A stretch of DNA of 46,968 bases from Candidatus Peregrinibacteria bacterium (GTDB taxonomy: Bacteria > Patescibacteriota > Gracilibacteria > UBA1369 > LOWO2-01-FULL-3): the NCBI GenBank assembly GCA_016186245.1, contig JACPLZ010000011.1, positions 1-46,968 of the forward strand, read 5' to 3'. The translations under genes and the position numbers were made by a program. This document shows, one piece after another, positions 1,419 through 43,029 of the stretch. Numbering within the stretch: the stretch's first letter is position 1; every line of letters starts with the position of its first letter. The notes beneath the pieces were generated by a model, which was not told the DNA's origin, did not search any database, and worked only from the letters and a program-made list of their open reading frames with translations.

Positions 1419-1429
1419 AAAAAATCTTT

Positions 1430-1885
1430 TTAGTTTTCCAGCACCTTCTTTGCCCATCCCTCCATCTCCGTCTCCTGCCTATCATTCTCATGGTCAAATC
1501 CAAAACAGTGCAGTAACGCATGCACAAACAAAACTTCCATTTCCTTACTTACCGTATGGCCTTTTTCTTTTGCCTGCTTTTTAGCAGTATCTATCGAAAT
1601 AAAAATATCACCCGCAATCACATCGCCTTTCTTTTTTTTGTATTCGGTTATTTCCAGATATGCAAACGATATCACGTCCGTGGGACTGTCTTTTTTTCTG
1701 TATTCGCGGTTCATTTCATGCATCGCTTTGTCATTTATAATTACCAGGTCTATCAGCCCGTTTCGCCCATACAGCCTGCCATCGACAAGTTTTTTAAGAA
1801 CTTTATAAAACTTTTTGATCCTCTTTTCAAAAAGAGTTTTATCAACTTTTATTTTTGTCTCGTTTGTAAAATCAAGTTTCAGCAT
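1430..1885 (-). CDS. ybeY: Endoribonuclease YbeY (rRNA maturation factor)
   Basis: 151 aa with the zinc motif HALLHCFGFDH (HxxxHxxGxxH) near the C-terminus. Size is typical for the family. Confidence 0.9.
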   Translation of the reverse strand: MLKLDFTNETKIKVDKTLFEKRIKKFYKVLKKLVDGRLYGRNGLIDLVIINDKAMHEMNREYRKKDSPTDVISFAYLEITEYKKKKGDVIAGDIFISIDTAKKQAKEKGHTVSKEMEVLFVHALLHCFGFDHENDRQETEMEGWAKKVLEN

Positions 1886-1907
1886 ACCGGCGCATTATAA
1901 CATAGCT

Positions 1908-2885
1908 TTATTTTTGCCAAAGACTTTCATAAATTTCCCATTCCTCTGCGTCAATTTCCCAATAAGGATATATTGCGACACCGGTAAAATTATCCTCATT
2001 GCTTCTGAAATTATTCAGTCCTGAAGTTATTCCTTTCAACCCGTTTTCGATATTTTCCACTTTTGGATTAAAACTTTCCTTTTCCTCGTCATATGAGGGA
2101 ATTCCAACAAGTAATTCTTTTCCGGCCAATAAATTTGACAGCCAAATAGTCTGCTCCCTCACAAGCAAACAATACAGCCATCCACTATTTATCCCTGTGT
2201 CATAAGCCATAACTACAATTTGATCGGCGTATTTTGCGACATTCCGATAATTCACTTCCGAATTAAAATTTTCAAATTCGCGAAAATTCTTCAATACCAA
2301 TATCAATGATTGAGGAATAAATTCCGCCAGCGCCACGGAAATTTTTTTCTCATCCGGCAGCGCCACTCGTGTTTCCTTGAGCAATTCAATAAAATCCAGA
2401 TCGCCATCCCATACCGGCTCAATGTCAAAATGCACGCCGTCAAATCCAATCAGTCCTGAAAAAATCAAAGCCTGCTTGGCGATATTTTTTCTAACTTCTT
2501 CATCGGCCAGATTTATTTTACTTCGCAATTGCCCCAGCCAGGCCTGATAGCGGATATTCTTATCGAATTTTCTGGCCTTATCAATGAAGTTGAAAGCAAA
2601 ATTATAAGTGTCCGGATCAATATTTCCATCTTCCATCAGCGGTCCGGCATGCACAAAAACAAGATCGATTTCATGTCTGGTTAAATTCTGAATCAACTCC
2701 TTGATTTCCTGATTGGATTTTTTTTCACCAAGCCATTCATGCCCTATCCAGGCCGCATTGTGCCCTTTATTGTAGAATGAACCGGGCTCGTTTGCCGACA
2801 AGCCTATGCCAAAATACCAGATCAAAAAAACAACCATGGCCAGAAAAAGTGTCAAAACAAACTTAAACCACGATCGTTTTTTCAT
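1908..2885 (-). CDS. Membrane-anchored TIM-barrel glycosyl-hydrolase-like protein (GH18-like)
   Basis: N-terminal TM segment (FKFVLTLFLAMVVFLIWYF). The motif FDGVHFDIEP resembles the GH18 DGxDxDxE catalytic signature. It overlaps the upstream gene by 4 nt. The functional call is tentative. Confidence 0.6.
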   Translation of the reverse strand: MKKRSWFKFVLTLFLAMVVFLIWYFGIGLSANEPGSFYNKGHNAAWIGHEWLGEKKSNQEIKELIQNLTRHEIDLVFVHAGPLMEDGNIDPDTYNFAFNFIDKARKFDKNIRYQAWLGQLRSKINLADEEVRKNIAKQALIFSGLIGFDGVHFDIEPVWDGDLDFIELLKETRVALPDEKKISVALAEFIPQSLILVLKNFREFENFNSEVNYRNVAKYADQIVVMAYDTGINSGWLYCLLVREQTIWLSNLLAGKELLVGIPSYDEEKESFNPKVENIENGLKGITSGLNNFRSNEDNFTGVAIYPYWEIDAEEWEIYESLWQK

Positions 2886-3415
2886 ATTTTATTTAAAGCG
2901 TCATACATAATAATCCCATAACATACCGAAACATTCAAAGAATTTGCCCTGCCAAGCATCGGTAACTCCACGGCCATGTCTGCCATGGCCATTACTTCAT
3001 CGGATACCCCATTAACCTCATGGCCAAACACAAAACATACAGGATACCCATACGCAGCTTTTGAATATTCAACGGAGTTATTGGCCAATTCCACGACCGC
3101 GATTTTTACACCCTCTTTTTTAAGCTTTTTTAAAACTTCTACGGCGCTTTCATTATATTCCCACGGAACCAACTCCTCTGCGCCAAGGGCTGTTTTGGAA
3201 ATTTCCCTGCGTGGCGGACAGCCTGTAATACCGCAAAGATACAGTTTTTTCAGCAATACCGCATCGGACGTTCTGAAAATCGACCCCACATTATATAAAC
3301 TTCTCACATTATCAAGCAGGGCAAAAATCGGATTTCTTTTTTTCTTCCTTACTTTTGCCGCGCTTGGCTTTTTTTTGAGAATTTCTTTATGACTCCGTTT
3401 CTTCATCCCTGGCAT
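2882..3415 (-). CDS. SpoU/TrmH-family RNA 2'-O-methyltransferase
   Basis: Motifs NVGSIFRTSDA, FVFGHEVNGVS and LGRANSLNVSVCYGIIMY match the three SpoU motifs. A basic N-terminal extension is present. An alternative ATG lies at 3406. Confidence 0.85.
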   Translation of the reverse strand: MPGMKKRSHKEILKKKPSAAKVRKKKRNPIFALLDNVRSLYNVGSIFRTSDAVLLKKLYLCGITGCPPRREISKTALGAEELVPWEYNESAVEVLKKLKKEGVKIAVVELANNSVEYSKAAYGYPVCFVFGHEVNGVSDEVMAMADMAVELPMLGRANSLNVSVCYGIIMYDALNKI

Positions 3416-5525
3416 TTATAAACGTCAAAGTACGATTAATCAAATCCTGTAATTCCTGTTCTGTAATGGGATCTTCGGGTCTGAAAAATTCATCATCATC
3501 TACAATGCCATTTTCCACGCCAAAATTAATATAGCGCGGATACCACCACATATGGCTGATTTTACTGTTTACATCAACAAAATAGGATTTTTGACTAGTC
3601 AGATTTTCTTCCGATCCCAAATCTCTTATCAGCTCAAAACGATACCTTGGAAACACCAGATCATTTGCGCCAAAAATAATCTTTAGCGCCTGGATTCTGG
3701 TAACTTGATCATCCGGTTTAAAAGGACTTCCATACTCACTCATATAACCGTTGACTATCCCAAGCAGGGTCGCCGTATTGACGGCTTCGTAGTAGGGATT
3801 TTCAGGCTGTACATCGGGATAAAGCACCAATGGACCCTCCAGATTTATTCCGTCGTATGATGACATTGCCATAAAATTAAACAGACAGAAATCAATATAA
3901 TCTTTGCATTGATCCAGGACATCAACTTTTTTCTTTTTCAGGTCAAACTGATCCAGAATTACCGTCAGGATTTCCCCCCTGGCCAAAACACTTCCTTGGC
4001 TATCCAAAACAGGTCTTTCATGGCCAAATATTTCATTGTTTCCGGGAAAAATAAATACTTTCCCGTTATTTACTGCAAATTTCCCTTCAGAATATCTTGA
4101 GCCTACAACAATATCCTGTACGCCATCATGATTAAAATCCATCACTGCGGCGCTATATCCAAACCAGTCATCTGCATTTTCACCGTGGATTAAAGAATGG
4201 ACATCTTTTTTACTGATACTGAATATTTTATCGTACCCGATAACATCTCCATACACGATATACACGTCGCCTGGAGCATCGCTGACCAATGTATTGATGC
4301 CGGGCGCCCCAACTATCACTTCATCCTTTTTATCTCCATTTATGTCGGAGAGAATCACACTGGCGCCGGGTATGGCCTCATCATTTGCATCATTGATTAT
4401 CGCATCGGGAACAAATGGAGAATTTTTTTTGGAAAGGAATCTTTCTCCGCCGAAATAAATTTTAATCATCGCGTCTTTTCGGTCTCCGGTATAAGGAAAA
4501 GAACTGATAGCCATATCATCTATCCCATCGCCGTTTATATCGCCGGTGTCCAGGTCAAACCCGAACCATTGTCTGTTTTTATCTCCTTCAAGCGTTATCG
4601 AAGCAATATCAACAATCCTCGGAAAAAGTTTTTTGCCGCTGTACATATACATTCTGCCGGCCTGCTCGTTTTTGCCAATTGTGGAAGAATATGCTCCCAT
4701 GAGCACATCATTTTTTGTGTCCCCATCTATATCCGCAACGCCTATCGATGCCCCAAAACGCTCCCCTGGTTTATTTCCCCTGAAAAGGACATTTTGATCT
4801 TCACTAATCCCGCGTATGGATCCATAATACGCGCTTACATTGCCGGATTTTGGATAATTAATGGAATCGGAAAAAGGCGAACTGACAAGCAAATCATCGG
4901 TGCTGTCACTGTCAATATCGCCTGTCGCAAGTGAATATCCAAAACCATCTCCATCCCTGAAACCTTTCAAAATTATGTCCGCCCTATTTAATGAAAAATC
5001 AAAATCCGTCTGGATATTTTTAAAAGCCTCCGGTGGGCGGCCATTCATTATATACACTTTTCCGGTGTGATTTCCCTCAAATGAAGCCTTAAATGCTCCA
5101 ATAGCAAAATCTTCAAATCCATCACGATTAAAATCACCGGTAGCCAGGGATGTCCCCAATTGATCTCCCCCGCTTTCTCCAAAAAAACTGATGTCATGAT
5201 AGTCGCTGCTCCCTTCCACGATGGAATTACGGCCGAATATCAATTGTACCATTCCACTCCATTGGCGATTGTCGTAAGTGGCAAAAGGAGAAGAAACAAT
5301 TAAATCATCCAAACCATCATTATTAAAATCTCCGCTGACAATTTCCGCTCCAAACTGTCCGCCAGGATATGTCCCTGCAAATTCGATTTTATCAACGGAA
5401 AGAGCTGTATCAAGCTCGTGGACCATTTTTAACGCAAAGACGCTGTTAAGCGGAAAGAATAAGGCAAAAACACTTAAACAAAAACAGAGAATTGCTTTGA
5501 AATGAGGATTCAACATCCAGCCCAT
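3387..5525 (-). CDS. Secreted FG-GAP/VCBS-repeat protein with a C-terminal SLH-like domain
   Basis: Repeated FG..x..GDxNxDGxDD units (for example FGYSLATGDIDSDSTDDLLVSSP and FGFDLDTGDINGDGIDDMAISS). The C-terminal part (YPDVQPENPYYEAVNTATLLGIVNGY...FKPDDQVTRIQALKII) resembles an SLH domain. The ORF track begins at 5657, only 5 bp from the divergent start at 5663. The ATG at 5525 (MGWMLNPHFKAILCFCLSVFALFFPLNSVFA) gives a normal signal peptide. Confidence 0.85.
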   Translation of the reverse strand: MGWMLNPHFKAILCFCLSVFALFFPLNSVFALKMVHELDTALSVDKIEFAGTYPGGQFGAEIVSGDFNNDGLDDLIVSSPFATYDNRQWSGMVQLIFGRNSIVEGSSDYHDISFFGESGGDQLGTSLATGDFNRDGFEDFAIGAFKASFEGNHTGKVYIMNGRPPEAFKNIQTDFDFSLNRADIILKGFRDGDGFGYSLATGDIDSDSTDDLLVSSPFSDSINYPKSGNVSAYYGSIRGISEDQNVLFRGNKPGERFGASIGVADIDGDTKNDVLMGAYSSTIGKNEQAGRMYMYSGKKLFPRIVDIASITLEGDKNRQWFGFDLDTGDINGDGIDDMAISSFPYTGDRKDAMIKIYFGGERFLSKKNSPFVPDAIINDANDEAIPGASVILSDINGDKKDEVIVGAPGINTLVSDAPGDVYIVYGDVIGYDKIFSISKKDVHSLIHGENADDWFGYSAAVMDFNHDGVQDIVVGSRYSEGKFAVNNGKVFIFPGNNEIFGHERPVLDSQGSVLARGEILTVILDQFDLKKKKVDVLDQCKDYIDFCLFNFMAMSSYDGINLEGPLVLYPDVQPENPYYEAVNTATLLGIVNGYMSEYGSPFKPDDQVTRIQALKIIFGANDLVFPRYRFELIRDLGSEENLTSQKSYFVDVNSKISHMWWYPRYINFGVENGIVDDDEFFRPEDPITEQELQDLINRTLTFINARDEETES

Positions 5526-8844: not shown

Positions 8845-10647
8845 TTACTCCCATTCAATAGTGCCGGGAGGTTTATTTGTCACATCGTAAAAGACCGCCG
8901 AGATTCCTTTTAATCCGATCAGCCGTTTTATAAGTTCGTTCAATTTTTCAAAATCCATTCTGTAAAAATTTGCCGTCATGGCCTCTTCGCTGCAAACCGG
9001 CCTTAGGACAAGCGATTCTCCACTTTGATTATTCACTTTTAATGGCAGTAAAACTGTCGGGAATTGCCATATCTCCCTGTTGATTTTGGCTTCAGCAAGG
9101 TAATTCATCACAATCATATCAGCCTGTTGGATAGTCGAAATACGCTCTCTGCTCAGGTCTGAAGGGTCGACCACAAAACTATCAAAAGCATCAGGAGATA
9201 AGCCATAAACTACCCTGTTCACACCTTTAAATTGATTAGTCAGTCGACTAGACAGAGTGTCCAGGTCATCCCAAGAAAGTGGCTTGCCGTAGACCAAAGC
9301 TGGATGTCGATAAGTGCGTTCATCCCCCTGTACGCCCACGCTTTTTATCGGCAATACTTTTATTTTCATACCAAAGCGATCGGCAATTTGCTGCATTTCC
9401 GCTTCCAGCGATTCTTTTGACTCAATATTATCCAACCCTTTGGCGCACAGACATCTCACCGCCAACCCTGGACCAGGAAAAGGATGCCTCCATACCAAAT
9501 GCTCCGGCAGCCCCAGTCGCTCGCCAACGAGACGCACCTCATCCTTGTACAGCTGTTTTAAGGGTTCAATCACTTTACCGGCCTCATCAAGTTTTTTTAT
9601 CCGCTCAACTTGATTATGATGTGTCTTTATCACATCGGCATGTCTGGTGCCGCCGGTTTCAATTGTGTCGGGGTAAATTGTTCCCTGTCCCAAAAACCAT
9701 TCATCTGGATTTAAACCCAGCCTTTCGGAAACTTTTTCCTGTATGTCCAAAAATAAATCGCCAATAATCTGGCGTTTTTTTTCCGGCTCATAAATTTCTT
9801 TTAAGGCCGCAAAATATTCTTCACTTGCATCGTAGACGTGCAGGTTCCCAATGCCTACGGATTTCAAAGCTTCTTCGACTTCTTTTCTCTCATTCATGCG
9901 CATAAAACCGGTATCCACAAACAGCCCATACACACGATCTGACCCCAAAACTTTTTCCAAAAGCAAAAATGCCACTGTGCTGTCCACCCCGCCGCTGATC
10001 ATCAAAAAAACTTTTTTACCACCCACCTTCATCTTTATTTCTTCCATCATTTTTTCCACGTACTGGTCAAGATTCCATTCGCGTTTTGCGCCTGTCAATG
10101 CGATAAAATTTTCAAAAATCTGCTTGCCACAGGGCGTATGGGTTACTTCCGGATGGAACTGCATGGAGTAGAAATTTCGCTTGTAATCGGCCATCGCAGC
10201 AATTGGACAATCCTCTGTCCCTCCAACAATTTCAAATCCTTCCGGCACTTTTACCACTTGGTCAAAATGACTCATCCATACTTTTTCCTCATTTTCCAGT
10301 CCTTCAAAAATGCCTTTTTTCTGCTGGAACTTCACAACCGCAGGACCATATTCGCTCATCACGCCGGGCTCGACTTCGCCTCCCAAAGCATAGGCCGTCA
10401 TTTGATGGCCATAGCAGATTCCCAAAACGGGGACTCCCAGTTCATAAATACCCGCATCTGCTTTTGGACTCTCCGGTGCATTTACGCTTGCAGGCCCTCC
10501 GGACAAAATAATTCCCATGTAATCTTTCAGTTTTTGCGCAGGAGCAGTGCCATCTAAAATCTCCGAATAAACACCCATGCGTCTGACCCGGTTGGCAATA
10601 AGATGCGCGTATTGTCCTCCAAAATCCAGTACTGCAATCTTGTCCAT
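8845..10647 (-). CDS. guaA: GMP synthase (glutamine-hydrolysing), long 600-aa form
   Basis: GATase region (GICYGHQM, QFHPEV), ATP-PPase P-loop (SGGVDSTV) and C-terminal PPGTIEWE. The region after HPFPGPGLAVR carries an extra segment of about 75 aa compared with the roughly 525-aa E. coli-type enzyme. Confidence 0.95.
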   Translation of the reverse strand: MDKIAVLDFGGQYAHLIANRVRRMGVYSEILDGTAPAQKLKDYMGIILSGGPASVNAPESPKADAGIYELGVPVLGICYGHQMTAYALGGEVEPGVMSEYGPAVVKFQQKKGIFEGLENEEKVWMSHFDQVVKVPEGFEIVGGTEDCPIAAMADYKRNFYSMQFHPEVTHTPCGKQIFENFIALTGAKREWNLDQYVEKMMEEIKMKVGGKKVFLMISGGVDSTVAFLLLEKVLGSDRVYGLFVDTGFMRMNERKEVEEALKSVGIGNLHVYDASEEYFAALKEIYEPEKKRQIIGDLFLDIQEKVSERLGLNPDEWFLGQGTIYPDTIETGGTRHADVIKTHHNQVERIKKLDEAGKVIEPLKQLYKDEVRLVGERLGLPEHLVWRHPFPGPGLAVRCLCAKGLDNIESKESLEAEMQQIADRFGMKIKVLPIKSVGVQGDERTYRHPALVYGKPLSWDDLDTLSSRLTNQFKGVNRVVYGLSPDAFDSFVVDPSDLSRERISTIQQADMIVMNYLAEAKINREIWQFPTVLLPLKVNNQSGESLVLRPVCSEEAMTANFYRMDFEKLNELIKRLIGLKGISAVFYDVTNKPPGTIEWE

Positions 10648-12233
10648 TATTTCATCTTCTTAAGAAGTTTTTTGGCTTTTTCCATCGCCTTTTTTTCTTT
10701 TTTGACAGTGTCCTCAAGCGGCCTCATAAGAGGGAACATCACCACATCTTTTAAATTATCCTGCGCACAAAGCAGCGTAATCAGGCGGTCAACACCCATG
10801 CCCCAGCCGGACACGCAGGGCATCCCGTGTTCCATCGCCAGCAGATATTCTTCATTCATCATCATGGCCTCCTCATCGCCCTGGGCCTTTGCCAAAGACT
10901 GTTTTTCAAATCTCTCGCGCTGATCAAGAGGATCCACGATCTCGCTATATGCGTTGATAATTTCCCATGTATTCACCAAAAGCTGAAAAGTATCGCACAA
11001 CCTTGGATCATCATCGTTTTTACGCGCCAATGGTTTTGTGCTTAAAGGATGCTGGATAACAAAGGTCGGTTGAATCAATTTCGGCCTGGAAACTTTTTTA
11101 TATAAATGATCGACCAGATTTCCATATCCCAGATTTTCCGCGCCATCGATGACGATTTTTTTCCTTTTGATTTCTTTCAATAGGGAAGCCGGTTCATCAA
11201 ATTTTAGCACATCAATACCGCAATCTTTTTTAATCAGTTCTGTGAATTTTTTGCGCGGCCAGGGAGGAGTAAAATCAATGTCCACTTCTTTGCCATCCCT
11301 GTCTTTTACTTTGACTTTCAACGTTCCCAGCAGTTTTTTTAAAATAGCCACAAACATCCGTTCGGTAAATTTCATATTGTCATCGTAATTCCAATAAGCG
11401 GCGTAATGCTCGATCATCGTAAATTCCTGGAGATGGCTCGGATCAAGACCCTCATTTCGGAAGCATCTGGCCACCTCGAAAGTTTTTTCAAAACCGCCTA
11501 CCATGGCCATTTTCTGCCACAATTCACCGGCCGCGATCCGCAGATAAACATCAATGTCGAGCGCATTATGATGGGTGATAAACGGTTTTGCAGAGGCGCC
11601 GGATGAAACATTTTCCAGCACCGGAGTTTCAATCTCGACAAACCCTTCCGACCAGTAAAATTCCCGAAAAGCGCGGACAAGATTGCTTCTCAAAATAAAT
11701 CTTTGCAAAACATCTCGATCCATGACGGTATCGAGATAACGCTGTCGATATTTGGTTTCCTGGTCTTGCACACCGTGCCATTTTTCCGGCAGAGGACGCA
11801 GAGCCTTGGACAGTAAAATCACTTTGGAAACCAGCGCTGTAATCTCGCCATGTCTTGTTTTAAACAACTCGCCTTCAACGCCGATAAAATCCCCCATGTC
11901 AATTTTTCGGATGAATTTATAGGCTTCATTGCCCATCAAGTCCTGCATGAAGCAGACCTGAATTTTCCCCGAAAAATCCTGGATATGTCCAAATGTCAGT
12001 TTCCCATGCTCACGCAAAGTCATCAGTCGTCCGCAAAGTTTAAGTGGATTTTTGGAAGGATTTTTTAGAATGGCATCCGCCTCGCGCAAGGTGTCTTTTG
12101 AGCCTTTCTCAAGCGCGTCTATGGCGAAATGTGTCCGCTCAAAACGCGCCGCATATGGATTTATTCCCTGCTTTCGCAGCTCCGCCACTTTCTGCAAACG
12201 TACATGAAACTCATTGTTATCGGCACCGGACAT
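10647..12233 (-). CDS. lysS: Lysyl-tRNA synthetase, class II
   Basis: Motifs YRQRYLD, FVEIETPVLE, FRNEG, EFTMIEHY and GWGMGVDRL. Its stop overlaps the guaA start by 1 nt. Confidence 0.95.
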   Translation of the reverse strand: MSGADNNEFHVRLQKVAELRKQGINPYAARFERTHFAIDALEKGSKDTLREADAILKNPSKNPLKLCGRLMTLREHGKLTFGHIQDFSGKIQVCFMQDLMGNEAYKFIRKIDMGDFIGVEGELFKTRHGEITALVSKVILLSKALRPLPEKWHGVQDQETKYRQRYLDTVMDRDVLQRFILRSNLVRAFREFYWSEGFVEIETPVLENVSSGASAKPFITHHNALDIDVYLRIAAGELWQKMAMVGGFEKTFEVARCFRNEGLDPSHLQEFTMIEHYAAYWNYDDNMKFTERMFVAILKKLLGTLKVKVKDRDGKEVDIDFTPPWPRKKFTELIKKDCGIDVLKFDEPASLLKEIKRKKIVIDGAENLGYGNLVDHLYKKVSRPKLIQPTFVIQHPLSTKPLARKNDDDPRLCDTFQLLVNTWEIINAYSEIVDPLDQRERFEKQSLAKAQGDEEAMMMNEEYLLAMEHGMPCVSGWGMGVDRLITLLCAQDNLKDVVMFPLMRPLEDTVKKEKKAMEKAKKLLKKMK

Positions 12234-12302: not shown

Positions 12303-14942
12303 TTATTCGCTCACCCCGTACTCTTCAAACTTCCTCGTCTTTTCAATATCAAGAAATTTCATCTGCTCTTTTTTGAAAGCAAGCTCCACATGTCCAACAG
12401 GGCCATTTCGATGCTTGCGGATATACACATCCGTAACACCTTTTTTTTCGGTATCTTCCTCATAATAATCTTCACGATAAATCATCAGCACCACGTCGCT
12501 GTCTTGTTCAATCGCACCTGAGTTATGCGACACAATATTATTTGCTAAAAAGCAAGATTCTTGTGGAACAGTCATGTCGTAAACCTCCTCTTCACCGGCA
12601 GCCTCAATTTTCACAATTTTATCCCAAAATAAATTATTATTACATTCCAGCTCTAAATCATGATCTGCAAGCCAAAAAGCGTAATTAAACACCAAATTTC
12701 GTGAAGGAGAAAAATTAAAATGGGCAGAGCCACAATAAGAAACTTCCCTTAACTCTGCCATTTGTCTAGCCGTTAAACCTACTCTTTCCATAGATTTTTT
12801 TATCTTAGTAAATATCTGTTGCGGCAAAGTATCAATATCTGTATTTGGAATAACGCCTTCCAGGGCTTTGCTCAATTTCACTGCTTGTGTTTTTCTTGGG
12901 CCAAAAGATCCGACATGGTTCAGAAACTTTTTTAAATCTTTTGCGCCATAAATAGTCACCATATAATTTGGCTTATATTCCCCTTTACGAACACGATATA
13001 TTCTTGCAACTATTCCAAATCTCAACAGCAGCGTCATTACATCAAAAGCTAAACCCTGGCTGTTTGTTGAGTAATGAATAACATGACTACATTTGCTGTT
13101 TCCTTTTCTTGTAAAAATAGTCCCATCGGTAGCCCAAAGGTGACGAAGCAGGGTTGCTATTTTTTGATTGCTTAGCTTAAAAGCCGCCACCGGAATACGT
13201 TTCTGATGGGATCGTTGCCCAAATATTTCCAATTCTCTAAACCATTTGTTGACACCGTCATAATGCCATCGATTTCCATTTCCGCTCAATAAAAGCTGAT
13301 GCCAGCTCCTTCTTCCCTTATATCTTGTTACTTTCATGCCAAATTCTTTCTCAGCTGCCTTTTTTACAAAAGCGCTGTTTTCCTCAGAGCTCGTGGTATA
13401 TCGCATCGGAGCATTATTCAAATAGCTTCCGTCACCGATCATTTGTCCCAGCAGGCCAATCCGATAATCAGACCAATCCTCCGCGCCATCCGGTTCTGGC
13501 AACTCATGAGCAATGGCTATCCTCTCTCCCTTTTTCATCATTCCAATTTTTTTCCATCCATCTCCTGTCATCAGTCGATGATTTGCAGTTGCAGTAACCT
13601 CCAGGCCTGTTGCCAATTTCACTTTAAATACAGGCTTTGTCCCGACCTTCCAAACTTTTTCACTTTTTGATTTAATTAATTTCCCTTGAGTATTAACTGC
13701 CAAAACTTCCGGTTCTTTATCCACCAATTCTTTAACCGGCACTCTGGTTCCATCTGCCAAAGTTATCAAGGTATCGCCAACAAGACATTCCCTCAAATCC
13801 GACAATTGCGGGATTTTACTCGGCCTTAATTCCACCGCTCTCGACAGCTGTGAGAGGGCGATAATGGGAATAGAAAGATCGCGCGCCAGAGCCTTTAACG
13901 ACCGCGAAATTTCACTGATTTCCTGCACGCGGTTTACCTGGAAAGAACCCGACATTCCTGTACTCATAAGCTGCAAATAATCGACCACAAGCAAATCCAG
14001 GCCGCTCTCCATTTTTAATCGTCTGGCTTTTGCTTTTAATTCCGCAATCGAATTTCCAATCGAATCATCGATAAAAATTTTCATGGAATTTAATTCATCC
14101 ATCACCGCTCCGATTTTACCAAAGTCCTCATCGGTCAATTGCCCGGTCCTCATCTTCCACGAATCTACGGAAAGCAGACTACAAAACATGCGCTCCACAA
14201 GCTGCTCCTTGGACATTTCCAGAGAAATAATAGCCACGGCATGCCCCTTTTTGGCTACATTCTGGGCTATATTCAATGCGAGAGCGGTTTTGCCCATTGA
14301 CGGCCTTGCGGCCAAAACAACAAGATCTGATGGCTGCAGGCCTGACAAAATATTATCCAGTGATTTAAATCCTGTCGGAATTCCACGATATTTTTCCTTA
14401 ACATCAGGATCATGGAGGTCGGAAATTTTTTCATAGGTTTTATTGAGGACATCTTTGATATGGACAAATCGATCCGCCATAAACGTCTGGGAGACGCCAA
14501 AAATCGTTTTTTCCGCATTGTCGATCAGATTTTCAACATCTTCATTTTCCATGTATCCAAAGCCCTTAATCGTATCTCCTGCAATGATCAGTTTCCTCAA
14601 AATCGCCTTTTGCTTAACAATCGTCGCGTATTGAAAAATGTGGGTCGCGGTAGGGACTTCATTGGCCAATTGGGCGAGATAGGAAGCTCCGCCGATCAAT
14701 TTCAACTCACCGCGGTCTTCGAGAATATTAACAAGCGTGACAAGATCGATAGGGGAGCGCTTGTCGTACAAATCGAGAATTGCCTTATAAATAAGCCGAT
14801 GGGCATCATGATAAAAGTCCTCCGGTTTGAGAAAATCGGAAATCTTGACGATCGCGTCTTTATCGATCAGCACGGAACCTATAGCCGATCTCTCGGCCTC
14901 CAGACTGTGCGGCGGCACATGTGAATCCATCAAATTGGCCAT
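12303..14942 (-). CDS. dnaB: Replicative DNA helicase DnaB, intein-containing precursor (879 aa; 457-aa extein)
   Basis: Walker A (ARPSMGKTALAL), LVVVDYLQLM, and SQLSR...SDLRE|C...HN|SGAIEQDSD. The insertion interrupts the conserved DLRESGxIEQDAD motif. Confidence 0.95.
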   Translation of the reverse strand: MANLMDSHVPPHSLEAERSAIGSVLIDKDAIVKISDFLKPEDFYHDAHRLIYKAILDLYDKRSPIDLVTLVNILEDRGELKLIGGASYLAQLANEVPTATHIFQYATIVKQKAILRKLIIAGDTIKGFGYMENEDVENLIDNAEKTIFGVSQTFMADRFVHIKDVLNKTYEKISDLHDPDVKEKYRGIPTGFKSLDNILSGLQPSDLVVLAARPSMGKTALALNIAQNVAKKGHAVAIISLEMSKEQLVERMFCSLLSVDSWKMRTGQLTDEDFGKIGAVMDELNSMKIFIDDSIGNSIAELKAKARRLKMESGLDLLVVDYLQLMSTGMSGSFQVNRVQEISEISRSLKALARDLSIPIIALSQLSRAVELRPSKIPQLSDLRECLVGDTLITLADGTRVPVKELVDKEPEVLAVNTQGKLIKSKSEKVWKVGTKPVFKVKLATGLEVTATANHRLMTGDGWKKIGMMKKGERIAIAHELPEPDGAEDWSDYRIGLLGQMIGDGSYLNNAPMRYTTSSEENSAFVKKAAEKEFGMKVTRYKGRRSWHQLLLSGNGNRWHYDGVNKWFRELEIFGQRSHQKRIPVAAFKLSNQKIATLLRHLWATDGTIFTRKGNSKCSHVIHYSTNSQGLAFDVMTLLLRFGIVARIYRVRKGEYKPNYMVTIYGAKDLKKFLNHVGSFGPRKTQAVKLSKALEGVIPNTDIDTLPQQIFTKIKKSMERVGLTARQMAELREVSYCGSAHFNFSPSRNLVFNYAFWLADHDLELECNNNLFWDKIVKIEAAGEEEVYDMTVPQESCFLANNIVSHNSGAIEQDSDVVLMIYREDYYEEDTEKKGVTDVYIRKHRNGPVGHVELAFKKEQMKFLDIEKTRKFEEYGVSE
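12522..13787 (-). mobile_element. Intein (422 aa) with a LAGLIDADG homing-endonuclease domain, inserted in DnaB
   Basis: Begins with Cys386 (CLVGDTLITLADG, codon 13785-13787). Block B is TANH. Two LAGLIDADG-type motifs are present (LLGQMIGDGSY and LRHLWATDGTI). It ends in VSHN (Asn807, codon 12522-12524), followed by the +1 Ser. Confidence 0.9.
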
Positions 14943-29567: not shown

Positions 29568-32171
29568 ATGCAGCTGATCATAGACAGGAAAATTTTTGAT
29601 GAATATCACGACCTCAAAATAGGAGCGATAATAATCCGCGGATTTAACAACAGCAAAAGAAGCTCCGCAATCGAGAGTCTGCTTCGCGGCGTTTGCGCCC
29701 AGAGGCGGCGTGAATTCCAGGATAAAGACATCCACGAAAATCCGATGATAAAAGTATGGGATCAGACTTATGGACGGTTTGGAGTCAATCCAAAAAAATT
29801 TCCGCCGTCAATTTCAGCTCTTTTAAAAAGAATCCGGACCGGAAAATATCTGTCCCACATCAACCCTTTGGTAGACCTTTATAATTATTTTTCGCTGAAA
29901 TATCTGCTGCCAATCGGAGGTGAAGACATTGATTGGCTTTGCGGAGATTTGCGTCTGGCTTTCACAAAAGGGGGAGAGGCATTCCGTCCGATTGGTTCAA
30001 TAGAAGTGGAAACAGCCAAAGAAGGCGAAATAGCCTACATGGATAAGGGCGGCATAACCAGCCAATACTGGAATTATCACGAATGTGAAAGAACGAAATT
30101 CACGGAACGGACGACAAATGCCGTCATCTTGATTGAGGATTTGAGCAAAATGCACATGGATGAATTCGGCCGCATTCTGGATGACTTGCAGAATAATATT
30201 TTGAAATACATTGGAGGACAAATTGAATCTTATCTTTTGAATGAAGAAAATCCTGCCATTGAGCTCGGCGCTCAAGGCAGGACTCATGCCGATGATGCAA
30301 AAATCCCACAGCAGGAAAGAGCCCACTTTTTGGAGCAGGAGTTGCGGGCGGAACGGGCAGTCTCTCCGGCTTCCGCTTCTTCCAATTCAAAAAAAAAACC
30401 TTGGAACAGCTCAGGCTCTTCTAAGCAGCTTATTGTAGAGGATAAAACATCTATTAGGAGTAAAATCGGCAGTCTTTTTGTCAAAGCTTTGGGGCAAATC
30501 GCACCGGGATTAAAACCGGAAATCCGTCTGGAAAATCCAGCTTCCGTCGAACACGGAGATTATTCCTCGAACATCGCCATGCAGATCGCAAAATTTTTAA
30601 AAAAATCACCACGCGACATCGCGCAGGAAATTATCAGGAATATTACCAAAAACACTTTGATTGAAAAAGTTACAGTAGAAGGGCCCGGATTCATCAATAT
30701 TTTTATTTCTGAAAAAATTCTGAATAAAGAAATAAATTCCATCATAAAAAAAGATGGCAGTTATGGCTCATCGAAAATCGGCCACGATAAAACCGTCATT
30801 ATTGAATACAGCCAGCCGAATATCGCCAAACCTCTTGGCGTCCACCATCTGCTTTCCACGATTATAGGGCAGAGCATCTATAATCTTTTAAAGCTCCTTG
30901 GCTTTAAAGCGGTCAGCATTAACCATATCGGCGATTGGGGCACGCAGTTTGGCAAACTTATTCATGCGTATAAACAATGGGGGGATAAAAAAACAGTCGA
31001 AAAAAATCCGATCAGCGAGCTCCTTAAATTGTATGTAAGATTTCACAACGAAGCCGAAAAAGACCAATCTCTTGAGGACAAAGGACGCGAGGAATTTAAA
31101 AAATTTGAGGAGGGCGACAGCGGGAGCAGGAAACTATGGCAATGGTTTGTGGACGAAAGCATGAAGGAAGTGGAAAAAACATACGGCATGCTTGGCGGAA
31201 TTCATTTTGATTATGTCCAGGGGGAAAGTTTTTACGAAGATAAAATGGGGGCGATTTTCGAGGAAGGCAAGAAAAGAGGAATATTTGTGAAAGGGGAGGA
31301 AGGCGCTTATGTAAGCGTTTTTGACGATCCTGATATCCCAACTGTGCCGGTGCGGAAAAAGGATGGCGCCACTTTATATATAACCCGTGATTTTGCAGCT
31401 TTAAAATATCGTATTGATACATGGCATCCTGAAAAAATTCTTTACGTTGTGGACGTTGCGCAAATTCTGCACTTTAAACAGATATTCGCCACCGCCAGAA
31501 AATTTCCATGGTACGGCGGCGAGGGCGAACACGTAGTGTTTGGACGCATGCAGTTTAAGGATGGAAAAATGAGCACCCGGAAAGGCAATATTATTGCATT
31601 GGATGAAGTGCTTTCGGAAGCCATAAATCGTGCATTGAAAATCGTGTGGGGGAAAAATCCCGACCTTAAAAATAAGGACGAAATTGCGCGCCTCATAGGC
31701 ATCGGCGCAGTAAAATACAATATCCTCTCCCAAAACCGTATTTCCGATATTACGTTTGATTGGGACAAAATGCTTTCACTGGAAGGAAATAGCGCTCCGT
31801 ATTTACAGTACACCTATGCGCGCGCACGGAGCATTTTAAGGAAATCGGAGGAGAAAAATCTGCGGGAATCAGTCGCGGATGATGATTCTGCTCAGGGGTT
31901 CCCTCAGACCAAAATCAGAAATCTAACAGTGCATTTAAGCAAGTTTTCCGAATATATCGTTTTAGCCGCATCGGAATATAAGCCGAATATTATCGCAAAT
32001 TATCTTTATGATTTGGCGCAGAAATTCAATTCTTTTTACAATTCCGTGCCGGTGCTGAGAGCTGCCTCCGCAGCAGATAGAAAACAGCGTCTCAAAATAG
32101 TCAAAGCATCTTCTATAGTCATGAAAAACGGCCTCGGATTATTGGGAATCGAGACTGTTGAAGAAATGTAA
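29568..32171 (+). CDS. argS: Arginyl-tRNA synthetase with an N-terminal B3/4 (PheRS-beta editing-type) domain fusion (867 aa)
   Basis: Residues ~1-225 (MQLIIDRKIFDEYHDLKIGAIIIRGFNN...INPLVDLYNYFSLKYLLPIGGEDID) match the stand-alone B3/4-domain protein pattern. A Ser/Lys-rich linker follows (SPASASSNSKKKPWNSSGSS). The ArgS part covers residues ~300-867: Arg_tRNA_synt_N region (VEHGDYSSNIAMQIA), HIGH-region (PNIAKPLGVHHL), GKMSTRKG, and the DALR anticodon-binding end. Confidence 0.9.
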   Translation: MQLIIDRKIFDEYHDLKIGAIIIRGFNNSKRSSAIESLLRGVCAQRRREFQDKDIHENPMIKVWDQTYGRFGVNPKKFPPSISALLKRIRTGKYLSHINPLVDLYNYFSLKYLLPIGGEDIDWLCGDLRLAFTKGGEAFRPIGSIEVETAKEGEIAYMDKGGITSQYWNYHECERTKFTERTTNAVILIEDLSKMHMDEFGRILDDLQNNILKYIGGQIESYLLNEENPAIELGAQGRTHADDAKIPQQERAHFLEQELRAERAVSPASASSNSKKKPWNSSGSSKQLIVEDKTSIRSKIGSLFVKALGQIAPGLKPEIRLENPASVEHGDYSSNIAMQIAKFLKKSPRDIAQEIIRNITKNTLIEKVTVEGPGFINIFISEKILNKEINSIIKKDGSYGSSKIGHDKTVIIEYSQPNIAKPLGVHHLLSTIIGQSIYNLLKLLGFKAVSINHIGDWGTQFGKLIHAYKQWGDKKTVEKNPISELLKLYVRFHNEAEKDQSLEDKGREEFKKFEEGDSGSRKLWQWFVDESMKEVEKTYGMLGGIHFDYVQGESFYEDKMGAIFEEGKKRGIFVKGEEGAYVSVFDDPDIPTVPVRKKDGATLYITRDFAALKYRIDTWHPEKILYVVDVAQILHFKQIFATARKFPWYGGEGEHVVFGRMQFKDGKMSTRKGNIIALDEVLSEAINRALKIVWGKNPDLKNKDEIARLIGIGAVKYNILSQNRISDITFDWDKMLSLEGNSAPYLQYTYARARSILRKSEEKNLRESVADDDSAQGFPQTKIRNLTVHLSKFSEYIVLAASEYKPNIIANYLYDLAQKFNSFYNSVPVLRAASAADRKQRLKIVKASSIVMKNGLGLLGIETVEEM

Positions 32172-32175
32172 TTTT

Positions 32176-32268
32176 TGGCGGAGAGGGGGGGATTCGAACC
32201 CCCGCGGCCACTATTGTGACCCTACAGGTTTAGCAAACCCGCCTCTTCAGCCTCTTGAGTACCTCTCC
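32176..32268 (-). tRNA. tRNA-Ser (anticodon GCU), class II long variable arm, CCA encoded
   Basis: Reverse complement folds as acceptor GGAGAGG/CCTCTCC, 3-bp D stem, anticodon stem CGGGT/ACCTG with loop TTGCTAA, variable arm GGTCAC-AATA-GTGGCC, T arm GGGGG-TTCGAAT-CCCCC, discriminator G, then CCA. Confidence 0.9.
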
Positions 32269-33774: not shown

Positions 33775-33864
33775 TGGCGGAGAGACAGGGATTCGAACCC
33801 TGGAGGGGATAAATCCCCTAACGGTTTTCAAGACCGCCGCTTTCGACCGCTCAGCCATCTCTCA
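33775..33864 (-). tRNA. tRNA-Ser (anticodon UGA), class II, CCA encoded; apparent U1-C72 mismatch
   Basis: Reverse complement folds with anticodon stem GCGGT/ACCGT and loop CTTGAAA, variable arm GGGGAT-TT-ATCCCC, and T arm CAGGG-TTCGAAT-CCCTG. The 3' acceptor strand is TCTCTCC-G-CCA. The 5' strand reads TGAGAGA where GGAGAGA is expected. Confidence 0.8.
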
Positions 33865-39651: not shown

Positions 39652-40825
39652 ATTCCTTTACGATAAAATAATCCTTGTCGCCGCGCCCAGAACAATTAAA
39701 AACAATTTTTTTATCTCTGCCAAGTTTTGGAGCAAGCTTTATAACTTCCGCTACAGCATGGGAAGATTCCAATGCCGCAAAAATTCCTTCGCTCTTCGCC
39801 AGCAGTTCATACGCTTCCAATACTTCCTTATCCAGCGCATAGGTGAATTTAATTCTGCCGATGTCATGCAGGTAGGCCATCTGCGGTCCCACGCCTGAAT
39901 AATCCAGTCCCGCGGAAATACTGTGCGTCTCCCGAATCTGCCCCTCTTCATTTTGCAGAAAATATGATTTAAATCCCTCCACGACTCCAACACTGCCGCC
40001 TTGAAAACGCGCCGCATGCTGGTTGCCATTTACGCCATTGCCGCCGGCCTCCACGGCAATCATCCTTACATGCGGATGATCCAAAAAGTTATAAAAAAGC
40101 CCGATTGCATTGCTGCCGCCGCCTACGCACGCCACCAGATAATCCGGCATACCATCAAGCTGTTTTGCCACTTCTTCTCCGATAATTTTTTGAAAAAAAG
40201 TATTCATCACAGGGTATGGATGAGGCCCGCAGACAGTGCCCAAAAGATAGTGCGTATTTACGGGATCGCCTATCAAATCACGCAACGCCGCATTGATAGC
40301 ATCCCTCAAAATCTGCCCGCCATTTTTTACCGATACCACCTCCGCGCCCAGTTTTTTCATCCAGAAAACATTCGGTTTTTGTCTTTCCATGTCCTTTGCT
40401 CCCATATAAATTCTGCATTTCATGCCAAGTTTTGCCGCGACTGTTGCTGTCGCCAATCCATGCTGTCCGGCCCCGGTTTCCGCGATAATTCTTGTTTTCC
40501 CCATTTTTTTAGCCAGCAAACCCTGTCCCAGACAATGGTTTATTTTATGTGCGCCGGTGTGATTAAGTCCTTCATTTTTAAGATAAATTTTTGCGCCGCC
40601 GAGTTTTTTAGTCAGATTCTCACAGAAATACAGGGGGGTGGGACGGCCGGAGTATGTCTCATATAATTGCTTTAGAGAAGCCAAAAAATCATCATCATGG
40701 ATTGCTTCAAAAAATACTTCTGTCAAATCCTCCATGACCGGTATCAGCATTTCCGGTAAATACCGTCCGCCATATTGTCCAAAATGGCCATCCTTATTTA
40801 GCAGATACTTTTTAAGTGATTTCAT
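39641..40825 (-). CDS. trpB: Tryptophan synthase beta chain
   Basis: Motifs GQYGGRYLPEMLIP, the PLP lysine motif HTGAHKINH, and GGGSNAIG. Confidence 0.95.
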   Translation of the reverse strand: MKSLKKYLLNKDGHFGQYGGRYLPEMLIPVMEDLTEVFFEAIHDDDFLASLKQLYETYSGRPTPLYFCENLTKKLGGAKIYLKNEGLNHTGAHKINHCLGQGLLAKKMGKTRIIAETGAGQHGLATATVAAKLGMKCRIYMGAKDMERQKPNVFWMKKLGAEVVSVKNGGQILRDAINAALRDLIGDPVNTHYLLGTVCGPHPYPVMNTFFQKIIGEEVAKQLDGMPDYLVACVGGGSNAIGLFYNFLDHPHVRMIAVEAGGNGVNGNQHAARFQGGSVGVVEGFKSYFLQNEEGQIRETHSISAGLDYSGVGPQMAYLHDIGRIKFTYALDKEVLEAYELLAKSEGIFAALESSHAVAEVIKLAPKLGRDKKIVFNCSGRGDKDYFIVKEYAK

Positions 40826-43029
40826 GTGTTTGTCATGGTTAGGAGATTTTTGCCGCGCAAAAATCCTTTTCCATTCATGTCGATAGCTTTCATCAGAGAT
40901 GTCCCCACAAGCACGGCATTAACCCGTTTGTCCAGTCTCTCCACGTCTTCCCTGGAATTGATTCCGCTTTCCGAAATTATTAGAATATTTCGCGGACATT
41001 TTTTCGCAAGCCGGTTGGTCACATTCAGATCCACGGAAAAATCCCTCAGATTTCTATTGTTAATTCCAATAATTTTTGCGCCGGATTTGACCGCGGTTTT
41101 TAATTCGTTTTCATTGTGGATTTCTACTACGACATCCATGCCAAGATTAGCAGCTACGCGGATGAAATTATGAATTTTCCCTTCATCCAGAATGCCGACA
41201 ATCAGCAGGATTGCATCTGCGCCGTATTCCCGCGCTTTATGAATCTGCCATTCTTCCATGATAAAATCCTTGCACAGAATTGGAGTATGCCTTGTCGCCG
41301 CCCTGGCCTGTTTCATGTAGTCAAAAGAACCTTCAAAATATTTTTCATCTGTCACCACGGATATCGCGCCGGCTCCGCTTTTTTCATAAATCCTGGCGAT
41401 TTTTGCCGCATCAAAATCTCCCTCGAAAATTTTCCCCGCGCTCGGCGAGGACTTTTTGATCTCAGCAATGACAGCAATACCTTTTCCGGAAACAGCTTCG
41501 CTGAAATTTCTGTCGGACTTCTTGAGGATTTTGCTTGCGGCAATTTCTTCCAGAATATTTTTTCCGTTTTTTGCCTGCAGGTAGCCCTCTTTAAGGTTAT
41601 CAACTTTTCCGGCAAGTCTTAATGCCATGGCGCAATTTACATAAACGAGATCGGCATGTCTGCTTGTGCATTTCCCTTCGATGATTTCTTTTGCAATTCT
41701 AACATTGAAATCGGCGGATCCTCCGGCAATTTTTTTGAATGAACATTTTTTTATTCCAAAATCTTCCGGTTCCAGAAAATATTTTTTGAGCTTTCCATTG
41801 TGCAGCTCCACTACTTTTGTTTTTCCAGTCAGCGTTATTTCGTCAAGACCGTCATCGCCGCAAACGATTATCACATGCTCTTTGCCCATCAGTTTGCAGG
41901 CCTCGGCGATCAATTCCATTTGATCTCTAAAACCAGTGCCGATGATCTGCTTTTTCACTTTTGCCGGATTTAAAAGCGGCCCCAGAATATTAAAAATTGT
42001 CGGCTTTCCAACCTGCTTTCTGGCCTCGGCAAAATATTTCATAACCGGATGAAAATTACGCGCAAAAATAAACGCAAGGCCGTTTAATTTGTAATCATTC
42101 TCCAATTGTTCCGGACTTTTATTTATATCAATGTCCAATTTCTCCAGCAGGTCAAAACTGCCAAAACGTCCGCTGGCAGCCATATTTCCATGTTTTGCGA
42201 TACCAACTCCCAGCTCAGCAAGTATAAACGCTGCAATGGTGGAAGTATTGATCCGCGCCAGCCCGGATCCTCCAGTACCGCAAATATCAATTGCATCCGG
42301 CATGTCCAGGGTAATCATTTTGGCGGTCATAAAATCTGCAAATGCTTTTAAATCGGCCGGTTTTATTTTTTCAATCGTATAATTCCCCAAAAATTTTATT
42401 TGCTCATTTAGCGGTAATTTCCCGTCAACGGTATCCTGCAGAAATTTTTCAACACTTGATTTTGGCGCATATTTTCCCACGACATTCTTTATAAGCTTCA
42501 TTCCCTGTCCGCGCTTCATTGTCAGGACGGATTCAGGATGAAATTGCACCGATTCAATCGGCAAAGTTTTGTGCATGACCGCCATCACCAGCCCGTCTGT
42601 TTTTGCCGTAATTTCAAAGCATTTTGGCGTTTTTTTTGCACACAGGGAATGATAGCGTCCGGCCAAAAAATTCTGATCCAATCCGGCAAAAATCCCTTTT
42701 TTATTATGCTTTATCGGGCTGCTTTTTCCATGCACCGGCTTCACAAATTTCAGGCTCCCGCCAAAATATTCAATCAATGCTTCATGTCCAAGGCACACCC
42801 CAAAAATCGGATATTTGAGATGATAACGGTCAATGAGTTTCATCATATTCCCCGCATTTTTTGGAATCGAAGGGCCGGGGGACAGCACGATCAAATCCGG
42901 CGCAATTTCATCCACCACATCTATATTTACATCATTTCTGTAAACACGCACATCGCAGCCAAGCTGCGCAAAATAATCAACAAGATTAAATGTAAACGAA
43001 TCAAAATTGTCTAACAGGAAAATTTTCAT
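40822..43029 (-). CDS. trpGDC: Trifunctional fusion TrpG-TrpD-TrpC: anthranilate synthase amidotransferase, anthranilate phosphoribosyltransferase and indole-3-glycerol-phosphate synthase
   Basis: TrpG part: FDSFTFNL, GVCLGHEAL, QFHPES. TrpD part: ICGTGGSG...KHGNMAASGRFGSFDLLE. TrpC part: IAEIKKSSPSAG, ISVVTDEKYFEG, ILCKDFI, VEIHNENEL, GINNRNLRDF, ISESGI. No PRA-isomerase (TrpF) segment follows. It has 4-nt overlaps with both neighbours. Confidence 0.9.
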   Translation of the reverse strand: MKIFLLDNFDSFTFNLVDYFAQLGCDVRVYRNDVNIDVVDEIAPDLIVLSPGPSIPKNAGNMMKLIDRYHLKYPIFGVCLGHEALIEYFGGSLKFVKPVHGKSSPIKHNKKGIFAGLDQNFLAGRYHSLCAKKTPKCFEITAKTDGLVMAVMHKTLPIESVQFHPESVLTMKRGQGMKLIKNVVGKYAPKSSVEKFLQDTVDGKLPLNEQIKFLGNYTIEKIKPADLKAFADFMTAKMITLDMPDAIDICGTGGSGLARINTSTIAAFILAELGVGIAKHGNMAASGRFGSFDLLEKLDIDINKSPEQLENDYKLNGLAFIFARNFHPVMKYFAEARKQVGKPTIFNILGPLLNPAKVKKQIIGTGFRDQMELIAEACKLMGKEHVIIVCGDDGLDEITLTGKTKVVELHNGKLKKYFLEPEDFGIKKCSFKKIAGGSADFNVRIAKEIIEGKCTSRHADLVYVNCAMALRLAGKVDNLKEGYLQAKNGKNILEEIAASKILKKSDRNFSEAVSGKGIAVIAEIKKSSPSAGKIFEGDFDAAKIARIYEKSGAGAISVVTDEKYFEGSFDYMKQARAATRHTPILCKDFIMEEWQIHKAREYGADAILLIVGILDEGKIHNFIRVAANLGMDVVVEIHNENELKTAVKSGAKIIGINNRNLRDFSVDLNVTNRLAKKCPRNILIISESGINSREDVERLDKRVNAVLVGTSLMKAIDMNGKGFLRGKNLLTMTNT

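Follow-up and report, generated by a model that had tools for sequence, protein, structure and literature searches.

The stretch of DNA analysed here, called the window below, comprises positions 1 to 46,968 (46,968 nucleotides) of contig JACPLZ010000011.1 from an uncultured Candidatus Peregrinibacteria bacterium, and the element in question is its argS gene, which encodes an arginyl-tRNA synthetase (ArgRS) with an additional N-terminal domain. The gene is one open reading frame on the forward strand (29568..32171) that starts with ATG, ends with TAA and corresponds to 867 amino acids. Four Pfam domains were found in this protein, all above their curated cut-offs: B3_4 (PF03483; residues 64-189, 85.1 bits, E 5.5e-24, cut-off 29.3), Arg_tRNA_synt_N (residues 302-380, 88 bits), tRNA-synt_1d (residues 389-732, 289 bits) and DALR_1 (residues 746-867, 114.5 bits). 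A first-pass annotation, made from the sequence alone, had described a single 867-codon frame joining a B3/4 domain of about 225 residues to a complete ArgS and had named the same four families for a Pfam check; all of them scored, and in that order. The ArgRS part is also recognized by the NCBIfam argS equivalog model TIGR00456 (residues 307-867; 495 bits versus a cut-off of 261.65).

In-frame ATG codons are located at positions 195 and 197 of the frame, and the next one follows at codon 338 within the N-terminal domain of ArgRS. The resulting ATG-free stretch of 140 codons is in good agreement with the roughly 135 codons before this domain to which the annotation had drawn attention. Genetic code 25 is common in Gracilibacteria. 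It was ruled out by the absence of in-frame TGA from the 867-codon frame and of a tRNA(UCA) from the genome; hence, the standard code applies. In the host genome (0.92 Mb in 69 contigs, 87% complete) the gene encodes the sole ArgRS, as indicated by a single PF00750 match, and also contains the sole B3_4 match. Four tRNA-Arg isoacceptors (CCU, GCG, UCG and UCU) are present in this genome.

A phmmer search of the PDB with the first 240 residues returned only two matches, 9mkl_A (E 6.3e-24) and 9f7e_A (E 9.2e-22), which are CtdA from S. enterica and from P. canavaninivorans, respectively. CtdA was shown experimentally to be a stand-alone deacylase of canavanyl-tRNA-Arg (PMC10018355). The AlphaFold2 model, for which 58 homologues were used (mean predicted local distance difference test score, pLDDT, of 89), consists of two confident modules that are joined by a disordered segment (residues 265-283, pLDDT <50). 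When the N-terminal module was compared with the PDB by Foldseek, the whole CtdA chain was matched over 226-229 columns with template modelling (TM) scores of 0.83-0.86 and root-mean-square deviations of 2.9-3.0 Å, and no chain of phenylalanyl-tRNA synthetase (PheRS) was among the best 50 matches listed. Helices 33-50, 59-70 and 81-90 of the model (pLDDT >90) are the equivalent of the CtdA-specific helical insert, which comprises residues 28-92 and 193-200 in S. enterica.

The pocket of CtdA was defined by mutagenesis and includes N105, G116, E118, C166, Q173 and I189 (PMC12449066). At these positions the window protein carries N106, G117, E119, S165, E172 and L188. The CtdA variants N105A, G116H/W, Q173G and C166G are inactive, C166S and C166A are still active on canavanyl-tRNA, with C166S hydrolysing Arg-tRNA-Arg too, and position 173 is Glu in the functional CtdA from C. 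perfringens (PMC12449066). Since CtdA functions with Ser at position 166 and with Glu at 173, the N-G-E-S-E pocket of the window protein is predicted from these mutagenesis data to be competent.

With the B3/B4 region of PheRS beta (E. coli, T. thermophilus) the domain shares the Pfam family and the basic fold. In both cases, as predicted for the window protein, a hydrolytic site for post-transfer editing is built into a synthetase. The PheRS residues His265 and Gly318 (E. coli), to which G116 and Q173 of CtdA correspond (PMC12449066), are replaced by Gly117 and Glu172 in the window protein, as in CtdA. Furthermore, the PheRS-specific helices are absent, and so is the context of B1, B5 and FDX-ACB domains according to Pfam. 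Consequently, sequence and model assign the N-terminal domain to the CtdA type and not to the PheRS-beta type. The annotation had called it a B3/4 domain of the PheRS-beta editing type; the B3/4 assignment holds with 85 bits, whereas the PheRS type is contradicted by the CtdA-specific insert and pocket.

The C-terminal module resembles ArgRS from E. coli (5b63 and 5yym; TM 0.87-0.90, 34-36% identity in Foldseek). Like the canonical enzymes covered by TIGR00456, it has complete Add-1, catalytic and DALR domains. In contrast to them (about 550-650 amino acids, no editing domain, H-x-G-H signature), about 295 residues are added at the N-terminus, and the HIGH signature is permuted to G-V-H-H (residues 424-427; 30837-30848). 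The KMSKS-equivalent is MSTRK at residue 668. A G/A-x-H-H signature is shared by 107 of 134 fusions, and the more distant fusions keep H-x-G-H. Since the variant is clade-wide in an essential gene present as a sole copy, it is presumably functional.

Table 1. Modules of the fused argS gene and nearby tRNA genes (window coordinates), and two-gene loci in related genomes (coordinates of the contig named).
Feature	Position	Strand	Basis or remark
CtdA-like B3/4 deacylase core, residues 1-225	29568..30242	+	Pfam, PDB sequence matches, Foldseek, pLDDT 89-97, pocket comparison
Conserved post-domain motif, residues 230-265	30255..30362	+	Alignment of 58 fusions, AlphaFold2 secondary structure
Disordered Ser/Lys/Pro-rich tether, residues 266-295	30363..30452	+	pLDDT <50 at 265-283, length variation in alignment
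ArgRS N-terminal (Add-1) domain	30453..30707	+	Pfam Arg_tRNA_synt_N, helix from residue 296
ArgRS class I catalytic domain	30732..31763	+	Pfam, TIGR00456, Foldseek, motif comparison
DALR anticodon-binding domain and TAA stop	31803..32171	+	Pfam DALR_1
tRNA-Ser(GCU)	32176-32268	-	Convergent, ends about 5 nt past the argS stop
tRNA-Ser(UGA)	33775-33864	-	Beyond the SLH-protein gene
Split domain and ArgRS, L009 (G155:C6)	1193-3741		
Split domain and ArgRS, L010 (G141:C1)	617-3168		
Split domain and ArgRS, L011 (G183:C8)	1298-3753		

A search with residues 1-300 revealed, among full-length candidates, 105 further clusters (90% identity) of 830-955 amino acids with the identical order of four domains. 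They originate from Gracilibacteria, Peregrinibacteria or Patescibacteria, and the only name given to them in the database is "arginine--tRNA ligase". Among 301 sampled genomes of the class, the window's family is represented by 13, and the domain is present in every one of them. Genera g2, g3, g5, g7 and g8 of this family encode it in a single frame with ArgRS (865-902 amino acids), and in genome G250 the frame is broken only by a scaffold gap. The alignment of the fusions has a mean column identity of 57%, and in conservation the N-terminal domain, with its many invariant residues, equals the synthetase body. The annotation's argument for a true fusion rather than two genes is thus borne out by the 105 further clusters, which are also the outcome of the database search for the same domain order that it had suggested, and by the single frames in the five genera. 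A census of 401 Patescibacteria genomes with the full-length protein showed, among the matches listed, that unfused ArgRS of 550-650 amino acids is the rule across the phylum and that fused forms outside the window's own order are a small minority.

The fusion protein might nevertheless not be made by the cell, either because two genes were joined by an assembly or homopolymer error or because ArgRS is translated from an internal non-ATG start. Consistent with this, a run of ten A residues is located inside the linker (30389-30398), and an in-frame TTG at codon 259 is preceded by GGAG 6 nt upstream, near the ArgRS start sites of sister genera in which domain and synthetase are separate genes. 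Across the A-run, however, both modules share one frame without a stop, and the other two frames reach stops within the linker. More than 100 independent assemblies share the single frame with linkers of unrelated sequence, and an internal start would only add free ArgRS while the fusion protein remains. We regard this explanation as extremely improbable. An assembly, frameshift or homopolymer artefact is excluded for practical purposes, since the linkers are unrelated yet always in frame and the alternative frames stop in the linker. The TTG codon itself (30342-30344) may be a possible internal start for free ArgRS or a chance occurrence within Glu-Gln-Glu codons.

Two elements connect the modules. 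Residues 230-265 follow the consensus DLGxxGRKxADDSKVPQQEKAHF in the alignment of 58 fusions and are modelled as a short strand and a helix (248-265) with pLDDT values of 80-90. The solved CtdA chains (about 230 amino acids) stop before this motif in the PDB sequence alignment. The motif follows the core in both fused and split forms, the latter keeping its first part, and it may be a docking element. The subsequent tether has the Ser/Lys-rich composition noted in the annotation and is predicted to be disordered. Among homologues its length ranges from about 20 to more than 100 residues.

It is reasonably likely that the sole ArgRS of this organism together with its tethered CtdA-family deacylase acts as a post-transfer editor of arginine analogues on tRNA-Arg. 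Add-1 of known ArgRS binds the D-loop of the tRNA. For hydrolytic activity, substrate and geometry we infer the following course. ArgRS would charge tRNA-Arg, and the CtdA-type domain, tethered to Add-1, would sample the aminoacylated 3' end, either as the product leaves or with the tRNA body still bound. The ester would be hydrolysed if it carries an arginine analogue such as canavanine or a different basic near-cognate, and Arg-tRNA-Arg would be spared by the selectivity of the pocket and by protection through ArgRS and EF-Tu, as for free CtdA, from which both proteins protect Arg-tRNA (PMC12449066). Most likely, the fusion would serve stoichiometry and a high local concentration, so that the domain would be a tethered trans-editor. 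Since the tether length is not conserved and natural two-gene forms exist, we argue for such a "trans-like" deacylase rather than for a fixed cis-editing or translocation channel of the LeuRS/IleRS type. The annotation had suggested cis-acting proofreading against near-cognate non-protein amino acids, and the proofreading suggestion is supported, since the domain belongs to the sole B3/4 family shown experimentally to deacylate mischarged tRNA-Arg (PMC10018355, PMC12449066).

The pocket is largely conserved. Over 106 ArgRS fusions, Asn is found in 103, Gly in 89, Cys in 80 (Ser in 11, Ala in 5) and Glu in 94, each at the respective position. The N-G-E core is kept in 86 of 105 close fusions and in 28 of 31 diverse representatives, and the full pocket expected to be competent in CtdA terms is present in the window protein and in about 85% of its close relatives. 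Seven fused ArgRS (P0078, P0081, P0085, P0087, P0088, P0090 and P0091) have the coordinated pocket N-R-D-S/A-R-F, with Gly changed to Arg, Glu to Asp, Cys to Ser or Ala, and Glu to Arg. Such a set gives the impression of a re-specified pocket rather than of a decaying one.

When 1.84 billion representatives were searched exhaustively with HMMER, 2,770 relatives of the N-terminal domain were obtained, the best 150 of which were classified. ArgRS is the partner in 31 of them, always with B3/4 at the N-terminus. Class II LysRS is the partner in five (three with B3/4 N-terminal, two C-terminal), class I LysRS in two (N-terminal in P0141, C-terminal in P0106) and TyrRS in six (N-terminal; one with a YbaK-type editing domain too). 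A GNAT acetyltransferase precedes B3/4 in two proteins, an amidase follows it in one, and 96 are free-standing without partner (<300 amino acids, some probably fragments). The side architectures among P0229, P0177, P0239 and P0167 are a YbaK-type tRNA_edit domain with B3_4 and TyrRS (825 amino acids), GNAT with B3_4 (two proteins) and B3_4 with amidase; a canavanine-selective GNAT is known (PMC10416765).

In the ArgRS- and LysRS-linked copies the pocket is acidic at the positions of E118 and Q173 and has Cys at 166. The TyrRS-linked copies, six related proteins, have His/Tyr, Gln and Thr at the E118, Q173 and 166 positions. This is suggestive of a pocket chemistry that tracks the partner synthetase, with the TyrRS sample being small and related. 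Such tracking would be expected of a substrate pocket and is not predicted for a generic tRNA-binding module. In a FastTree phylogeny built from the domain alone, one group of 80 rows (support 90) contains every copy linked to ArgRS, the copies linked to class II LysRS are mostly in another group, and the TyrRS-linked copies are in the other half of the tree.

Within the window's family, the domain is a separate open reading frame of 257-259 codons in g4 (five genomes) and g6 (one genome). The adjacent ArgRS frame (559-591 amino acids) begins 2 nt past the TAA of the domain in g4 or overlaps with it as ATGA in g6, an arrangement that is typical of translational coupling. The split domains end with ...QEKAYFLKI or ...QEIAYFLENHK. 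Since the split forms nest within the clade of fused proteins with a FastTree support of 99, they are most simply interpreted as secondary fissions. At the positions of N105, G116, E118 and C166 the split domains carry Lys or Arg, Arg, Lys, and His or Gln in g4, and Asn, His, His and Asn in g6.

Several observations weigh against an editing role. In families f2, f5 and f7 of the same order, ArgRS is fused and the pocket is replaced, including the essential Asn. The corresponding fusions (L014 (G208) from f7, L015 (G148) from f5 and L016 (G287) from f2; 863-982 amino acids) have lost the Asn, Gly and Cys positions, and the match to the query in f7 is reduced to about residues 10-133. Across g4/g6, f2, f5 and f7, N105 is replaced by Lys, Phe, Asp or His and G116 by Arg, His or Ala. 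Selection apparently keeps the scaffold where catalysis of the CtdA type should be gone or changed. Between two g4 species (synonymous divergence, dS, about 1.1) the ratio of non-synonymous to synonymous substitutions (dN/dS) is 0.056 for the split domain versus 0.073 for the adjacent ArgRS. The window protein itself has Ser at the C166 position, and hydrolysis of Arg-tRNA-Arg, as observed for CtdA C166S in vitro, would be costly if it took place here. No riboswitch or T-box was found in the window, for which the Rfam scan gives two tRNAs only, and no gene of the arginine deiminase pathway was found in the 87%-complete genome. Neither in the window nor in the genome was a link to canavanine or guanidine metabolism found, the neighbours being ordinary housekeeping genes. 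Canavanine is a metabolite of legumes, and exposure to it is not expected for a groundwater-type organism of the candidate phyla radiation (CPR).

These points bear on two further explanations. On the one hand, the CtdA scaffold might be mainly non-catalytic and serve for holding the acceptor end, for handing off the product or for docking to ArgRS or another partner, with hydrolysis being absent or secondary. This would explain why sister lineages keep the domain, fused or coupled, after losing the equivalents of N105, G116 and C166, why purifying selection on the g4 domain is stronger than on the adjacent ArgRS, and why the additional motif, which the solved CtdA chains do not reach in the sequence alignment, is retained in fused and split forms. 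It does not account for the conserved competent pocket of the window protein and most close relatives, for the covariation of the pocket with the amino acid of the partner synthetase, or for the resemblance of the N-R-D-S/A-R-F set to re-specification. For the window protein we consider a mainly non-catalytic role unlikely, although it is the main rival of editing and, given the pocket loss, has to be taken seriously for neighbouring lineages. Since pocket residues have been lost there and dN/dS is nevertheless 0.056, the domain may have a pocket-independent role too, and editing is perhaps not its sole role.

On the other hand, the domain might deacylate cognate Arg-tRNA-Arg, or a broad range of basic aminoacyl-tRNAs, and so serve as a brake for regulation or quality control instead of an editor specific for analogues. 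The Ser at the C166 position would fit, since CtdA C166S is effective on Arg-tRNA-Arg and the wild type, too, hydrolyses it weakly at high concentration (PMC12449066), and tethering would raise the local concentration to a very high level. However, selection is unlikely to favour futile consumption of ATP on the sole ArgRS of a 1-Mb genome, Cys rather than Ser is present in 80 of 106 family members, and ArgRS shields Arg-tRNA from CtdA in vitro (PMC12449066). Accordingly, such a brake is quite improbable, and the editing of arginine analogues remains our preferred explanation.

In the window, argS stands alone. Its upstream neighbour is a divergent CNNM/CBS/CorC transporter gene with an intergenic distance of about 76 nt, and downstream a gene for an SLH-domain protein follows after tRNA-Ser(GCU). 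A T-box or guanidine riboswitch leader was ruled out by the Rfam result and by the short upstream gap. Consensus scans for promoters and terminators gave matches at chance level only. The idea that stress by citrulline or ornithine might arise from the arginine deiminase pathway was dropped, since no gene of this pathway was found in the 87%-complete genome.

A PheT B5 domain and a convincing PheS were not found in the 87%-complete assembly, and the pheST locus seems to be unassembled. A weak PF01409 match at 11304-11486 falls within the gene of the class II LysRS (10647-12233), which is unfused in this genome. The possibility that the fused B3/4 domain replaces a missing PheRS editing function was rejected, because pheST is probably unassembled, the acidic pocket fits basic substrates and CtdA is unable to replace PheRS editing (PMC12449066). 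Elsewhere in the window, the DnaB replicative helicase (12303-14942, reverse strand, 878 amino acids) contains an intein, with the N-terminal splicing region at residues 385-458. TrpG, TrpD and TrpC (anthranilate synthase II, phosphoribosyltransferase and indole-3-glycerol-phosphate synthase) are joined in one protein of 734 amino acids (40822-43029, reverse strand).

Among known systems, the closest is the CtdA-1 clade (9f7e, 9mkl; PMC10018355, PMC12268091, PMC12449066), with which the window domain shares the fold, the helical insert and the pocket positions. The partner enzyme implies the same tRNA species, tRNA-Arg. The hallmark Cys of CtdA-1, present in most of the fusions, is Ser in the window protein. 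CtdA is free-standing with about 230 amino acids and lacks the 230-265 motif, whereas here the domain forms the N-terminal 225 residues of an 867-residue ArgRS. CtdA genes are often under the control of guanidine riboswitches in canavanine-exposed bacteria, whereas the window gene has no riboswitch and resides in a genome of CPR type. The characterised CtdA proteins are more distant from the window domain than about 150 uncharacterised relatives. A deacylase scaffold that is free-standing, fused or split depending on the lineage is also known from ProRS INS/YbaK/ProXp, the AlaRS editing domain/AlaX and ThrRS-ed. There, too, editing pockets degenerate in small genomes; the fold and the synthetases are different.

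In textbooks ArgRS is listed among the synthetases without an editing domain, and editing of tRNA-Arg was reportedly first shown in 2023 for free-standing CtdA. The annotation had considered the architecture to be undescribed. In agreement with this, a full-text literature search found no description of a B3/4, CtdA or editing-domain fusion to ArgRS in these bacteria, nor of an appended editing domain for ArgRS, LysRS or TyrRS. The CtdA literature (PMC10018355, PMC12268091, PMC12449066) mentions no fusion. The new aspect is that a known trans-editing family occurs here appended to a synthetase for which no such domain has been described.

If the proposed function is correct, a natural ArgRS with built-in CtdA would provide this enzyme with its first editing module linked in cis, and such proteins might find use as ArgRS variants of high fidelity in cell-free or recoded translation systems. 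Taken together, it and the fusions to LysRS and TyrRS would suggest that basic and aromatic synthetases face near-cognate amino-acid stress from more than legume canavanine. A more far-reaching proposal, which we put forward tentatively and consider rather doubtful, is that the CtdA scaffold is a modular proofreading cassette on editing-less synthetases (ArgRS, LysRS of both classes and TyrRS) in bacteria of CPR type, with a pocket that was repeatedly re-specified for different non-protein amino acids (N-R-D-S/A-R-F, N-G-H-T-Q, and split forms with Lys/Arg/His), or that in pocket-less lineages it has entered a new non-hydrolytic partnership with ArgRS. Either version, if true, would add to translational quality control a layer that has not been described. 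Within one order, fused forms, split forms and forms with an altered pocket provide a natural series on tethering and on a post-catalytic role of the scaffold.

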